A DNA stretch of 64,000 bases from Microthyrium microscopicum (lineage: Eukaryota). Numbering within the stretch: the first letter of the stretch is position 1; the number at the start of each line of letters is the position of its first letter. The DNA lies in assembly GCA_010405405.1 (NCBI GenBank), contig MU004237.1, positions 1,499,345 through 1,563,344 of the forward strand, written 5' to 3'. This document shows positions 17,055 to 43,233 of this stretch, piece after piece. The position numbers and the translations under genes were made by a program. Below the pieces are notes generated by a model, which had not been told where the DNA came from, searched no databases, and saw nothing but the letters and a program-made list of their open reading frames with translations.

Positions 17055-18406
17055 ATGAAGCGCATCTTGAATTGGTCTCTTGCCACAGTTCTGTCTCAAA
17101 TAGTAAGCTGCGAGGATCGATAGTCATGTTCGCGTAAGTGTACTGACACTTCCGAGCCTCTTTTTCAATCCTCTATACCCGATCTTGACGATCAATCCTG
17201 GATCCAGAGATGGACAGCAGTCGGGGACTCGTATGCTTCAGGTCTTGGAACAGGTCTTAGACTGGACTATGGCTGTAGCAGATACGCGGGTGGATATCCA
17301 AATCTCATGGAAACAGACGAACGCTTCGGCTTAAATCCCAACAGAACGTTCCAGTATCTGGCGTGTTCCGGTCTCAAATCAACTGAGATATTGACCAAAC
17401 AAGTGCCACATGTTCTGGACAATCAAGATTTGATCACTATATCCGCCGGTGGCAACGATGTGGCTCTAGGCGATGTATTGGATTCATGCATTTTCCAATG
17501 GAAACATGGGAACTCCGCTAGATGCGACGCTGCCTTGGTTCGATCTCAAGAACTGATTGATACTGTCCTGGAAACAAACGTGGACCTTCTGATTGACTCC
17601 TTGGTCACCAAGTTGTCACCCAACGGAAGGATATACTACCCTGGCTATGCCCAATTCTTTGGTGATTCTGTAAGCTGTAATAATATTTCTTGGTAAACAT
17701 CCCCAAACAAGAGACTTCAGCGGTGCTGCTTTGCTTCAATCGAACTCGTTGGCTGTTTCCTTAGCTTGCATGACTACCTAGATATGCACTCAACATTCAC
17801 TGACAAGTCAGGTCTGTTTGGCCTCGTATGCCACCTTCAGATCGACAGAACCTCACCATTGAGCGACGAGTTCGTATGAATCACATGGTATCCCAAGTCA
17901 ACAAAAAGCTCAAACAATCCATCGACAAGGCCGGCGAAAATGTCATCTTTATTGATTGGGACTGGACATTTGCCCAAGCAGGTGGTCGATTCTGTGAGAA
18001 TGGAACCAGAGAACCAGCCCCACAGCGACAAGGCTTGTTATTCTTCGAGTGGAACACCATGGACGATGGTGATGATCCGAATCTTCTCATACGGCCTGGC
18101 GATCCCGTCCCTTCAGATTCATTCGAGGGCGACATCGGTAAATGGGTACTCGAAACTTTGACGAAGCACCCAGATTGGCAGTTTGGTCCTGTTGGAACGG
18201 AACCTATTGCGATATACCCAGCTGTTATGGAGCGACTGATAGACAGTCAGGGTCTGCGGGCACAACTTGGCTTTGATGATTATGTTTTCTGGTTTCTTCC
18301 TGATTCTTGGAAGCGGGTATTTCATCCTCGGGCTTTAGGTCAGCGCTTGATTGCGGATATGATTATTCATGCCATGGCAGTTGAGAAGGCTAATATGGTA
18401 TTTTAG
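17055..18406 (+). CDS. Secreted SGNH/GDSL-like hydrolase; 3 exons
   Basis: Blocks VGDSYASGLG (upstream of the ORF-track start), LACSG, ISAGGND, PGYAQFF and RVFHP. Introns about 17103-17156 and 17693-17811. Confidence 0.85.
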
Positions 18407-18519
18407 CAACAATGCAGCCCATATCATTCCATCGAGTAAAGACACTAACTACGGAAGCGCATTGTGGCCTACCCTTCCACATCAAGAAAACCAAAATCTG
18501 AAATTCATCAAAGGGACTT

Positions 18520-18577
18520 GATAATTGGCCCCTATATTCCAGATAATTGGCCCTTAGATTCCAGATATTTGGCCCCC
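18520..18577. repeat. 22-bp tandem repeat, about 2.6 copies
   Basis: GATAATTGGCCCCTATATTCCA / GATAATTGGCCCTTAGATTCCA / GATATTTGGCCCCC. Confidence 0.8.
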
Positions 18578-18904
18578 ATAGTATCCGAAGCCGAGATATT
18601 CTAAAGCTATTCCTAAATAGGAAGTCCGTGATAAAACCCATAGTGTTACAGTGGTACTGGAGCATAATTTTGATATCCAAAGATCTAATATTTTGAAAGT
18701 TAAAACACTAAAACTACGCCAATAGACTAACTCTAAAAGGGACTTTAAAGAGGTCCTTAGAACTAAACGCATACAGCATTTTTAACGTATATGTTTTAAG
18801 ATTCGCTTGTATATAAAATGAAAATGTAGACCTTTATACACGACATGCATAGACAACAGACGAAAACGGGTTTATTCTCAGTACGACTAACGTATGCAAG
18901 GCGG

Positions 18905-19050
18905 TGATGGCCGCGGGTTCACAAGCAGTGGATCTGATGGATTGAGTAATGAGTTAATTGGTAAAAGATGTTGCAGAAACTATGGTGTTTCTGTACACGA
19001 AGATGCTTAAATAACCCCTCCCTTGGTAGAGTGCTCCGTGCCTGCCATCA
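18905..19050 (-). repeat. 3' LTR of the TRIM-like element
   Basis: 146 bp, identical by eye to 19598-19743; TG...CA ends with a 7-bp inverted terminus. Confidence 0.93.
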
Positions 19051-19597
19051 ACCATCCCAAAAGCTTTCAAGATCAAGCTCGTCTTGATCTTCTTTGGTGT
19101 TGAGAGAAGGTGTTTGTCGTCCGTCAGTTCGAACACATTTGAAGTTGCATCTCGTCGTCGTCTTCGTAGTCCACTGAATTCAGGTTCTCAGGCTCACGGA
19201 ATCCACACCGTCTATTGCCCGTCTATCGTTGAATTCCCATCGTAAAAACTCATCTTCGGCTCGTTACCGCACCGCTACGGCGTGCCTCTTCATAGGTCAC
19301 CCGTCGGTTCGTCAACATCGCAAAGTATCTCGTCAAAATCGGTTGGTTGTGGGCCAAAAGCCCGTCTTCGGCCGCTCATCGTGTATGTTTTTGGTGGGGA
19401 ACCCGGTTCTCGTTGGGAAGGTTGCTTGGCAGCTGATGAGGGAATAGTAGTAGCTGCTCGTTGTTGATGATAGTTTGATGAATTGTTAATGGAATTCAAT
19501 GAGTAAGTGATCGTTCGTTGCTTTAACGACATGGCTGCTTTTGCTGATGATGAAAAGGTAATAAAGATCTTGCTTGTCCACGGTTCAGCCCCCAGAT

Positions 19598-19743
19598 TGA
19601 TGGCCGCGGGTTCACAAGCAGTGGATCTGATGGATTGAGTAATGAGTTAATTGGTAAAAGATGTTGCAGAAACTATGGTGTTTCTGTACACGAAGATGCT
19701 TAAATAACCCCTCCCTTGGTAGAGTGCTCCGTGCCTGCCATCA
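19598..19743 (-). repeat. 5' LTR of the TRIM-like element
   Basis: 146 bp, identical by eye to 18905-19050. The minus strand has a TATA-like TATTTAAG and the LTR is followed by the PBS. Confidence 0.93.
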
Positions 19744-20428
19744 GCGGCCTAGGGCAGATATGCATCCCCGTTTTCAATGTTGCTTCAAGACGACTATTTA
19801 GTGGAAGCTTCCTTGTCAGACAAGCGACATGTTTGGGTGAGTTGTTGTTAGCGAAACCCAATCATATGGCTTCTACACTCAGGGTTGTAAAGTTTCTGCC
19901 TTTTGAAAGACGACCATGTCGCTTCTTAGCTAATATTCTTCGTAAACCAGGTTGAAGATCTTGTTGGTTCTAGTCTTCAGATACCCCCGCACCAGATTGG
20001 CATTTGACGTAGTTGTTTTCCTATTGTTTGCTACTACAAGCTTCCAACAATAGTAGCGCCACTGTTGCTATATCCGCTATTCGAAATGAGACAGATAAAA
20101 TCCAAACTACAAGCTTGCTAAGTCGGAAATGGAAGAGCCGCAGAGAGCGTTTTCCTCCTTCTAGATGTAGATCCTTGAGAGTCTTTAGCGCTTTGCAACG
20201 GTCCTTATTATCTCCCCTGCTATTTTTTTGGCCCCTGACTGTTATTTGTATCTCTGTAGGATTCTATCCCCTGCATACAATCACCATATCCCTTGATCTT
20301 TCATGTGTTAGCATCGGTGCTCGTCTGTCACATAGCGGCTAGTTTCCCATTACTTTAAATGTGTATGCCCTGAAAGCTCGTTCAGTCGAACTAGTTGCTC
20401 TTGATTTCATTGTTTATTGCTCGTTCCC

Positions 20429-39972: not shown

Positions 39973-40284
39973 GTTGACCAGCTTGAGGCAGATATCCGAG
40001 CGCAAAGAGAGGAATCAGGCCGGGAGAGCTTGACCTGGAGAACTGGAGCTGTTGGGGAGCTTGCCTATCGTCACGTTTGATTGGTGGTTGGAGAGTGGGG
40101 AGATATTCGGATAAGGAGGCTCATTTTAACAGCTGCACGATGGCGGGGTTAGCCTAAAGTGCATTCACACACGTGATATCATTTTTGAATGTCAAAAACA
40201 TGAGTTTGCCTCAAAGTTCAAAATACAACCGTTTATCGAACTTGCTGGGAAACATTTCAAGAGCTTGGGAGTCGGGTCGCCATC

Positions 40285-43233
40285 ATGACCAGCCTAAAGC
40301 GCACTCAGCCAACTGGCTCGGATTCCACCAACCTCTCCAGCAAAGTCTATGTTCGAACAACACGAGCTGGAAAAGTCCAGAAGATCGTCCGAGAAGTTTA
40401 CCTACGACAGGATATTCCTTGTTCTTCAGCACTGTGTTCGGAATGTTCAAAGATTTCAACGACTTACGCCCGCGGGCGAGCTCAGCCTCCAGTACTCGCA
40501 GCCAAGCCTCTGACCTCCGAAACTTTTTCAACGGGACATTATTTGGTGCCAGATACCAATGCAGTTCTGACTGGAATGGATCTATTCGAGCTTGAATCGG
40601 CATTCAAGGATGTCATCATTCTTCAAACAGTACTCGAGGAAGTCAAGAATCGTTCACTGCCGCTTTATCATAGACTCGTAGCGTTAACAAAGAACGAGGA
40701 TAAGCGCTGCTATGTCTTTTTCAACGAATTTCGAATGGAAACGTATGTTGTACGGCAAACAGGCGAAAGTATCAATGATCGTAACGATCGCGCTGTGAGA
40801 CGTGCTGTACAGTGGTACAAGGAACATCTCGAGTTGTCCGTTAAGAAAAAGGCATGTCCTGCCATTGTCATGATCAGCAATGACAACGATTGTCGGAAAA
40901 AGGCAATTGCCGAGGGTCTGGTTGGACTTTCATTATCGAAATATGTCTCTGGTTTGGAGGATGCAGATACATTGCTGGACATGGTCAATGAGGGTCGAGA
41001 GCGGGAAGATGCAAAGACTACTCAGGAGAACTTCTATCCTGAGTACTATTCGCTTTCCAAAATGACAACTGGAGTAAAAGCTGGGACTATGCATCAAGGA
41101 ACATTCGGTGTCTCGCCATTCAACTACTTGGAAGGCACAGTTCGTGTGCCAGCCTTTGAAAGACCATTGATTATTCTTGGTCGCGAAAACAGCAATCGAG
41201 CCGTTTCAGGAGATGTGGCTGTGGTTGAGGTGCTACCCAAAGAGCAATGGAAAACACCATCATCCAAGATCGTTGAAGAAGAGACCCTTACAAAGAACGA
41301 TAATCCTGAAGCCGAGGATGGAGAAACAGTGATCTCCAACAAAGAGCGAAAAGCACTCCAAGAAGACGTAAAGAAAGCACATGGCACAACAACAGAAGGC
41401 AAGCCTCAACCAACAGCACGGATTGTTGGTATCATCAAACGCAATTGGCGACAATATGTTGGTCATGTCGATAAAGACTCTGTGCGAACGTCAGATAAAC
41501 TCAGCCGAGCAGCACAAACTGTATTCGTGATACCGATGGACAAGAGAATACCCAAGATTCGCGTTCGAACTCGACAAGCTGGAGAACTACTTGGAAAACG
41601 AGTTCTCATCACAATAGATTCTTGGGATCGGGATTCAAGATATCCTGTGGGTCATTTCGTTCGGTCGCTAGGAGAATTGGAATCCAAAGGCGCGGAAACA
41701 GAAGCACTACTACTTGAATATGACGTTCAATACCGACCATTTGCAAAGTCTGTACTGGATTGTCTACCCGAAGAAGGCCATGACTGGAAAGTTCCAGCGG
41801 ATACGAGTGATCCAGGTTGGCGAGATCGGAGAGACCTACGTGATCTTCTAGTCTGTAGTATTGATCCTCCTGGATGCGTCGATATCGATGATGCCCTCCA
41901 TGCTACTCAATTACCCAATGGCAACTTTGCTGTTGGCGTCCATATCGCCGATGTTTCAAACTTTGTCAAGCCTGACACAGCCATGGACCGTGAGGCTTCG
42001 ATGCGCGGAACTACCGTCTACCTCGTCGACAAGCGAATAGATATGCTTCCCATGCTGCTTGGTACTGACCTCTGCTCACTAAAGCCATTTGTCGAACGTT
42101 ACGCCTTTTCAGTTCTTTGGGAACTCACCCCAGAAGCCGATATAGTCAGCGTCGACTTTAATAAATCTGTGATCCGGAGCCGCTACGCCTTCAGCTACGA
42201 ACAAGCACAACTGCGGATTGATGATGCTTCACAAACCGACGACCTCACCCAAGGCATGCGAATCCTCCTACAACTTTCACGGACTTTACGTGCCAAACGA
42301 ATGGCCGCAGGTGCTCTAAACTTGGCCTCGCCAGAAGTGCGAATCGAGACTGAATCAGAAACCTCTGACCCCATCGACGTGAAAACCAAGCAAGCGTTAG
42401 CCACCAATTCGCTTGTCGAAGAATTCATGTTACTCGCCAATATCTCCGTCGCCCGCAGAGTCCAAACCGCTTTCCCACAAACAGCTCTCCTCCGTCGCCA
42501 CGCCGCCCCTCCCGCCGCCAACTTCGCAACACTAACTCATCAGCTGCGCGTCAAGCGCGGGCTGACTCTCGACGTGAGCTCCTCTAAAGCACTTGCTGAT
42601 AGCCTAGACACATGCGTGTCATCAGACAGCCCATTCTTCAACACCCTGATCCGCATCCTAGCAACCCGCTGCATGACTGCTGCCGAATACTTCGCCGCAG
42701 GTACACTCGCGCCCGCTCAGTACCGGCATTACGGCCTCGCGTCTGAAATATACACCCATTTCACATCACCTATTCGACGATACGCCGATTTAGCCGTGCA
42801 CAGACAGCTAGCCGCCGCCATAGACTATGCACCCCTCGCACCAAGTCTTCAAAGCCGCAGCAGGCTAGAGGGTGTGTGCCGCAATATCAACGTTCGCCAT
42901 CGCAATGCGCAATTTGCCGGCCGAGCAAGTGTGGAGTACTACGTAGGGCAGGCATTGAAAGGTCGAGATTTGATCGAAGAGGGACATGTGATGCGAGTAT
43001 TCGAGAATGGCGTCGTGGTGTTTGTGCCGCGCTTTGGAATAGAGGGTCTTATACGTCTACGAGATATGGGGACACCTGAGCCGGTTGGCGAATTTGACGG
43101 CGAGGAGTATGTGTTGAATGTGACGGGCAGTAGGGAGGTACGTCTTGAATTGTTTGATGAAGTTAAGGTGCGGATTACGGATGAGGTTGAGGAGAGTACG
43201 GGAAAGAGAAAGGTCAAGTTAGGATTGGCATAA
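40285..43233 (+). CDS. DIS3: Exosome catalytic subunit Rrp44/Dis3
   Basis: CR3 motif REVYLRQDIPC, PIN domain (PDTN, QTVLEEV, NDRNDRA), RNB active site SIDPPGCVDIDDALH, HYGLA..YTHFTSPIRRYAD and C-terminal S1. Confidence 0.97.
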   Translation: MTSLKRTQPTGSDSTNLSSKVYVRTTRAGKVQKIVREVYLRQDIPCSSALCSECSKISTTYARGRAQPPVLAAKPLTSETFSTGHYLVPDTNAVLTGMDLFELESAFKDVIILQTVLEEVKNRSLPLYHRLVALTKNEDKRCYVFFNEFRMETYVVRQTGESINDRNDRAVRRAVQWYKEHLELSVKKKACPAIVMISNDNDCRKKAIAEGLVGLSLSKYVSGLEDADTLLDMVNEGREREDAKTTQENFYPEYYSLSKMTTGVKAGTMHQGTFGVSPFNYLEGTVRVPAFERPLIILGRENSNRAVSGDVAVVEVLPKEQWKTPSSKIVEEETLTKNDNPEAEDGETVISNKERKALQEDVKKAHGTTTEGKPQPTARIVGIIKRNWRQYVGHVDKDSVRTSDKLSRAAQTVFVIPMDKRIPKIRVRTRQAGELLGKRVLITIDSWDRDSRYPVGHFVRSLGELESKGAETEALLLEYDVQYRPFAKSVLDCLPEEGHDWKVPADTSDPGWRDRRDLRDLLVCSIDPPGCVDIDDALHATQLPNGNFAVGVHIADVSNFVKPDTAMDREASMRGTTVYLVDKRIDMLPMLLGTDLCSLKPFVERYAFSVLWELTPEADIVSVDFNKSVIRSRYAFSYEQAQLRIDDASQTDDLTQGMRILLQLSRTLRAKRMAAGALNLASPEVRIETESETSDPIDVKTKQALATNSLVEEFMLLANISVARRVQTAFPQTALLRRHAAPPAANFATLTHQLRVKRGLTLDVSSSKALADSLDTCVSSDSPFFNTLIRILATRCMTAAEYFAAGTLAPAQYRHYGLASEIYTHFTSPIRRYADLAVHRQLAAAIDYAPLAPSLQSRSRLEGVCRNINVRHRNAQFAGRASVEYYVGQALKGRDLIEEGHVMRVFENGVVVFVPRFGIEGLIRLRDMGTPEPVGEFDGEEYVLNVTGSREVRLELFDEVKVRITDEVEESTGKRKVKLGLA

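Follow-up and report, generated by a model that had tools for sequence, protein, structure and literature searches.

We suggest that the 839-bp feature described here belongs to the non-autonomous TRIM-type LTR retrotransposons, lies on the minus strand, is primed by tRNA-Pro and is mobilised in trans; we regard this reading as very probable. The element is located within a stretch of 64,000 nucleotides, in the following called the window.

Results

Architecture of the element

The element is bounded by a pair of direct repeats of 146 nt each with 100% identity, and this pair is the sole repeat of at least 40 nt within the 64-kb window. The repeats start with TGATGGC and end with GCCATCA; they thus possess the TG..CA ends of LTRs and a terminal inverted repeat of 7 nt. 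Directly outside of the LTRs the motif GCGG is found on both sides. As the bases adjoining GCGG outward differ on each side, the target duplication has a length of exactly 4 bp, a length read at one locus, where identity of a 4-bp flank arises by chance in 1 of 256 cases or might be atypical for the family. The interior between the LTRs comprises 547 nt (Table 1). Altogether the layout given in the initial annotation, namely identical 146-bp LTRs with TGATGGC/GCCATCA ends, a GCGG duplication and a 547-bp interior, is borne out. To this description we add that a spacer of 3 nt parts the LTR from the primer-binding site and that the polypurine tract is weak.

Table 1. Coordinates of the element and of its target site in the window
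Feature	Position	Strand	Evidence
Target-site duplication, left copy GCGG	18901..18904	.	Identical to 19744-19747
3' LTR (element orientation), 146 bp, TG..CA	18905..19050	-	100% identical to 19598-19743; 7-nt terminal inverted repeat
TATA-like TATTTAA, 3' LTR copy	19007..19013	-	Read from sequence
Weak polypurine-tract candidate GGGATGGT, directly upstream of 3' LTR	19051..19058	-	Read from sequence; 6/8 purines; assignment putative
Internal region, 547 bp, without recognisable coding capacity	19051..19597	-	Protein, Pfam and RNA scans
Longest interior ORF, 80 aa, probably not a gene	19290..19532	-	ORF list; no protein or Pfam match
Primer-binding site TGGGGGCTGAACCG, complementary to tRNA-Pro 3' end + CCA	19581..19594	-	14 contiguous matches to tRNA-Pro genes
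Spacer ATC, 3 nt, between 5' LTR and primer-binding site	19595..19597	-	Read from sequence
5' LTR (element orientation), 146 bp	19598..19743	-	Identical to 18905-19050
TATA-like TATTTAA, LTR positions 38-44 of 5' LTR	19700..19706	-	Read from sequence; promoter role putative
Target-site duplication, right copy GCGG	19744..19747	.	Identical to 18901-18904

Coding and RNA content of the interior

The longest ORF of the interior that starts with ATG codes for 80 aa on the minus strand, and its translation has no match at E ≤ 0.001 among 1,835,955,588 protein representatives. When seven stop-to-stop frame pieces of the interior were scanned with Pfam, none of the seven gave a match above threshold, the sole match being DUF726 with E = 0.05. 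By these ORF, protein and Pfam searches no gag, protease, RT, RNase H or integrase was recognised in the interior, and the earlier claim of an interior devoid of RT, RNase H and integrase is upheld by the protein and by the Pfam searches alike. In the window as a whole, 24 of the 26 ORFs of at least 200 aa are without an RT or integrase domain and the other two overlap longer ORFs; those ORFs of this size which match a family are all ordinary cellular genes.

The predicted RNA fold of the interior is no better than the folds of shuffled sequences (z 0.31). Rfam yielded no match at gathering score in the whole window, and a more permissive RNA-family scan of positions 18300–20000 gave only sR14 within the interior, with E = 0.038 and below its threshold. 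No tRNA gene was found by ARAGORN in the 64-kb window. An element of the Cassandra/Helenus/Ajax (TRIMp3) type could be ruled out, as neither ARAGORN nor Rfam nor the permissive scan revealed anything tRNA- or 5S-like within the LTRs. A scan for bacterial promoters and terminators was set aside, since it is not applicable to a fungal host.

An interior of this kind could also be left behind when an autonomous LTR retrotransposon suffers an internal deletion, and in this case the feature would be a one-off dead copy and not a member of a family that is copied in trans. Simple deletion derivatives, however, usually retain some remnant of gag or pol, and none was seen in any frame of the interior. 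The further evidence that bears on this alternative comes from the related copies.

Related copies and age

Parts of a 2251-base stretch, which comprises the element and its flanks, occur in seven runs, and the contigs of four of these runs (X3, X5, X6, and X7) were compared. Distinct contigs were counted as versions, whereas contig depth was rejected as a measure of copy number. A total of 105 contigs map to the 2251-base stretch in run X3, which derives from the probable source sample. Among eight listed pieces of this run, four distinct contigs overlap the positions 19261–19337; one of them is identical to the window, and the other three differ from it by 29–33 letters and 5–8 gaps over 199–273 nt and are ∼80–86% alike. 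As judged from these contigs, the interior belongs to a small multi-copy family whose copies have diverged, with at least three versions in X3 besides the identical one.

The diverged X3 contigs have a length of 261–404 nt and appear to be colinear with the interior on either side of skipped parts. This colinearity weakly suggests that the relatives are likewise short elements, and together with the short length of the contigs it argues, as a weak inference, against a deletion derivative. On the other hand, the joints in X3 skip 135 and 139 nt and related contigs leave the interior of the window at 19049, 19139, and 19425, so that longer relatives are possible; in addition, the other versions show only the limited similarity given above. 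These observations would suit a single deleted copy, an explanation which we nevertheless consider unlikely.

The preferred reading, a family of short elements copied in trans, does not include the very young age and the recent mobilisation that had been proposed initially. This part of the initial annotation could not be maintained, as its sole basis is the count of 0 differences in 146 LTR positions, which is a poor means of dating, and as the relatives are diverged. The absence of differences in 146 bp is compatible, at 95% confidence, with a divergence of up to ∼2%. With the rates that are usually assumed we estimate that a divergence of ∼2% corresponds to some one to ten million years.

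A RIP signature is absent from the element copy: its indices (TpA/ApT 0.61; (CpA+TpG)/(ApC+GpT) 1.20) are close to those of the window (0.71 and 1.28). Over the entire stretch the X3 contigs have C>T or G>A at 55 of 111 changed places versus 18 places with A>G or T>C, while in the 13 interior rows shown the ratio of C>T/G>A to A>G/T>C is 6 versus 5. RIP is not claimed for the element family, as the excess of C>T/G>A derives mostly from a separate repeat upstream of the element, which is described below.

Strand and primer-binding site

In minus-strand orientation the 5' LTR is the right-hand repeat, which is followed by ATC and then by the sequence TGGGGGCTGAACCG. In agreement with the initial annotation, the plus strand reads CGGTTCAGCCCCCA at this place (19581–19594).

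The tRNAs for comparison with this site were taken from metagenome contigs, which are distinct from the genome that carries the element. A search pattern consisting of a generic tRNA T-loop joined to the complement of the primer site was found at 110 loci in these contigs. In three of the 110 loci, which represent two distinct genes, a tRNA gene overlaps the match; the remaining 107 lie in unrelated sequence and match by chance. The first gene (L100) is a 72-nt tRNA-Pro(TGG) gene beside a tRNA-Trp. The second one contains an intron and is found in identical form at two loci (L031, 301–402, and L053, 220–321). It is labelled Ala(cgc) by ARAGORN with the intron at position 34, and the Rfam alignment lets the anticodon loop begin with U-U-C and assigns the rest to an insert. 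From this alignment and from the usual position of introns it follows that the anticodon reads CGG, that is, Pro, and the designation Ala(cgc) seems to be an erroneous label given by the tRNA finder.

Both tRNA-Pro genes end with ..CGGTTCAGCCC. The sequence TGGGGGCTGAACCG pairs without mismatch with CCA and with the 11 encoded bases that precede it in tRNA-Pro, which gives 14 contiguous matches with both genes. At position 62 of the tRNA a mismatch is present in both genes and C61 matches again; contiguous pairing thus comprises 14 of 18 possible nucleotides. A match over the full 18 nt of the primer was not obtained, as among the 110 pattern loci there is no real tRNA with an A at position 62. 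The tRNA-Pro-type primer site proposed in the initial annotation is nonetheless corroborated by the exact 14-nt complementarity to two tRNA-Pro genes plus CCA from metagenome contigs, and the minus-strand orientation of the element by the position of this site 3 nt from the right-hand LTR. A search of viral contigs for the 18-nt tRNA-Pro primer site gave six matches, all of them in large contigs, which we took as chance; aragorn found no tRNA at the match, and no LTR-type context was seen within the ∼100 nt around it.

With up to two mismatches allowed, the 14-mer is found once in the window, and at least one match of this quality also turned up in 25 of 100 shuffled versions of the window. 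As the 14-mer is not rare in shuffled sequence, its weight comes from the exact match 3 nt from the end of the LTR. Taken by itself, this frequency in 64 kb would also suit a plus-strand element with unconventional priming, either by self-priming or by an internal tRNA fragment, for which the tRNA-Pro-like 14-mer would be a coincidence. Such a reading could further appeal to the weakness of the polypurine tract of the minus strand, where the candidate GGGATGGT (19058–19051) contains only 6 purines in 8 positions, and to some fungal Copia lineages which lack a classical primer site, according to the available part of the source (PMC5445492). The plus strand, however, offers neither of the usual priming signals: the left LTR is followed by ACCATCCC.., which does not start with TGG, and the right LTR is preceded by ..CAGCCCCCAGAT, which is pyrimidine-rich and hence no polypurine tract. 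Since moreover the 14 nucleotides match two tRNA-Pro genes exactly and at the position expected for a primer site on the minus strand, a plus-strand element is highly improbable.

Junctions and sequencing runs

On either side of the element, X3 contigs that come from the flank continue without differences for 30 letters within the LTR. A bridge was defined as a contig that reaches 31 letters into the LTR, and a reach of 30 letters is what is expected for 31-mer contigs at the edge of a repeat. By this 31-letter rule none of the listed contigs bridges the flank–LTR junction, and none of the pieces extends over the entire stretch. In X5 the left flank runs 15 letters into the LTR; X6 and X7 contain only low-depth pieces, none of which reaches a junction. 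An artefact of the assembly, or a tandem duplication at the locus that merely resembles LTRs, would agree with the missing bridges and with the lack of a spanning contig, but it can practically be dismissed, as TG..CA ends, 7-nt inverted repeats, a 4-bp duplication, and a tRNA-complementary site are jointly unlike misassembly or slippage and as contigs of X3 and X5, two runs with different labels, are identical from the left flank into the LTR and an X3 contig leads from the LTR into the right flank.

No contig of X3, X5, X6, or X7 joins the flanks across the element as an empty site would, a result which is uninformative on polymorphism. An empty allele would read ..AAGGCGGCCTAGG.. with a single GCGG and would mark a recent insertion.

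In X5, which is an RNA library only by guess, the interior from 19066 to 19601 is present as one identical contig, whose strand and ends are not given by the contigs. The same run has no contig on 19720–19947, and its flanking depths vary from 19 to 1282, as opposed to an even depth in X3. This pattern would be compatible with an RNA library in which a gap to the right of the element is untranscribed. The runs X6 and X7, which carry the label of a different organism (C), contain short pieces at a depth of ∼2–3.5 that are identical to the interior (19072–19458) and to the two flanks (18465–18808 and 19898–20108); it seems that the same or a near-identical fungus is present in this sample at trace level.

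Host and neighbourhood

The host was judged from the Dis3/Rrp44 ORF (40204–43233), which is uninterrupted and comprises 1009 codons. Its best named matches are 75% identical and belong without exception to Dothideomycetes from several orders; one further protein is 99% identical. By this marker the window is from a Dothideomycete-like ascomycete, in line with the fungal host assumed in the initial annotation, and the source lineage seems to be without a close named relative in the protein collection searched.

The element sits in an intergenic gap of ∼1.6 kb between a GDSL-lipase-like gene, which ends near 18406, and unassigned plus-strand ORFs that begin at ∼20013. A second dispersed repeat, which is unrelated to the element, is located ∼200 bp upstream of it (18450–18720). 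Many variant X3 contigs pile up on this repeat, with C>T or G>A making up the majority of the differences listed. Three tandem units of 22 bp (GATAATTGGCCCCTATATTCCA and variants) are found at 18520–18585, and a 10-bp direct repeat, AAAGGGACTT, occurs at 18510–18519 and 18736–18745. The region 18450–18720 has no Rfam match, and its 105-aa ORF has no Pfam match; possible identities are a short non-autonomous element and a solo LTR that belongs to a different family. On the other side, a neighbouring X5 contig begins at 19950, ∼200 bp from the element. From this contig start and from the adjoining dispersed repeat it appears that insertions of mobile elements may be tolerated in this gap.

Discussion

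The structural features of the element give a hint how its life cycle might be realized. RNA polymerase II would start downstream of the TATA-like motif TATTTAA in the 5' LTR, and the transcript would end in the 3' LTR. The RNA would then be packaged by the Gag protein of an autonomous LTR element which is encoded elsewhere in the genome. Synthesis of the minus-strand DNA is likely to be primed by tRNA-Pro at the primer-binding site, and the short purine-rich sequence GGGATGG beside the 3' LTR could serve as primer for the plus strand. Finally, the integrase of the partner would join the TG..CA ends to a target cut with a 4-bp stagger, which would leave GCGG on both sides.

By analogy with what has been published on other TRIMs (PMC10886601), the use of a tRNA 3' end as primer and the 4-bp duplication, as seen at this one locus, hint that the autonomous partner may be of the Ty3/Gypsy type rather than of the Copia type. 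One could go further and suppose that the element represents a TRIM family without mutations that is mobile at present, in a scarcely sampled lineage of the Dothideomycetes, with a partner that makes 4-bp duplications and is primed by the 3' end of tRNA-Pro. We regard this extension as rather doubtful. If it were true, a mobile family with a 4-bp duplication and a tRNA-Pro 3'-end primer would indicate an undescribed autonomous Ty3/Gypsy-like lineage in the host.

For annotation purposes the element can serve as a textbook case of a miniature LTR element with a clean structure; it should be masked as a repeat and not be treated as intergenic sequence. Should further copies likewise have the 4-bp duplication and a primer at the tRNA-Pro 3' end, these two traits would be a lead to the autonomous partner and would add to the small number of characterised fungal TRIMs. 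The current understanding of LTR elements is left unchanged by the element.

The 3' end of tRNA-Pro is conserved, and MLV also primes from tRNA-Pro. The initial annotation had spoken of an MLV-type combination. What stands of this description is the shared tRNA-Pro primer together with the 4-bp duplication; a kinship with retroviruses does not stand, as the interior is without coding capacity and the protein and Pfam searches gave no gag, pol, or env homology to retroviruses. We attribute the likeness of the primer site to that of MLV to the conservation of the tRNA-Pro 3' end.

Classical plant TRIMs are somewhat smaller than the 839-bp element. In the following, published elements are compared on the basis of the available parts of the cited texts. 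TRIMs are defined as elements of less than 1000 bp which do not encode mobilisation proteins, which have two LTRs and whose interior is bordered by a primer-binding site and a polypurine tract (PMC10886601). With 839 bp, LTRs of 146 bp, no mobilisation protein, a primer site, and a weak polypurine tract, the element is a TRIM by this definition.

The initial annotation had considered a possibly undescribed fungal family and had viewed TRIMs as being best described in plants and animals. The novelty implied in this was overstated, since the available texts show that TRIMs have been annotated in Dothideomycetes and have been described in rust fungi and Agaricomycetes. Nine TRIMs are annotated in Cochliobolus heterostrophus, seven of them related to Copia and two to Gypsy (PMC4112212), and the curated library of Zymoseptoria tritici contains one TRIM family (PMC10652580, PMC12612061). 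By their description, which is the level at which they were compared, these Dothideomycete elements stem from the same fungal class as ours and are of a like kind, being non-autonomous with TG..CA LTRs (PMC4112212, PMC10652580, PMC12612061). The Copia elements of C. heterostrophus have target sites of 5 bp, or 6 bp in one family, as opposed to the 4 bp found here (PMC4112212). Small non-autonomous LTR elements are also known outside plants from animal hosts, namely the TRIM of Echinococcus (PMC4558846) and the TRIMs of bivalves (PMC6934838). Two further reports, as far as their available text goes, touch the subject in passing: PMC3562529 mentions TRIMs only as background, and the mentions of tRNA-Pro in PMC3132168 concern tRNA fragments and not primers. 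In the literature on fungal LTR elements the expression "4-bp target site duplication" gave no match, which, for one narrow phrase, is no proof of absence.

The closest basis for comparison of the priming mode is given by the Helenus TRIMs, of which 113 families are described in Pucciniales (rust fungi) and which also occur in some Agaricomycetes (PMC10886601). The fungal Helenus elements resemble our element in being short LTR elements that have both a primer-binding site and a polypurine tract and are presumably mobilised in trans. On the contrary, they generate 5-bp duplications and mostly use anticodon-loop primers in a Copia-like manner, whereas our element has a 4-bp duplication and a primer site for the 3' end of tRNA-Pro (PMC10886601). 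Animal Helenus elements, according to the same source, have 4-bp duplications and use tRNA 3' ends with a Gypsy-like primer site (PMC10886601). We therefore view the element as a new member of the TRIMs which is mildly unusual, as its 3'-end tRNA-Pro primer and its 4-bp duplication differ from the accessible reports on fungal TRIMs with 5-bp duplications and mostly anticodon-loop primers.
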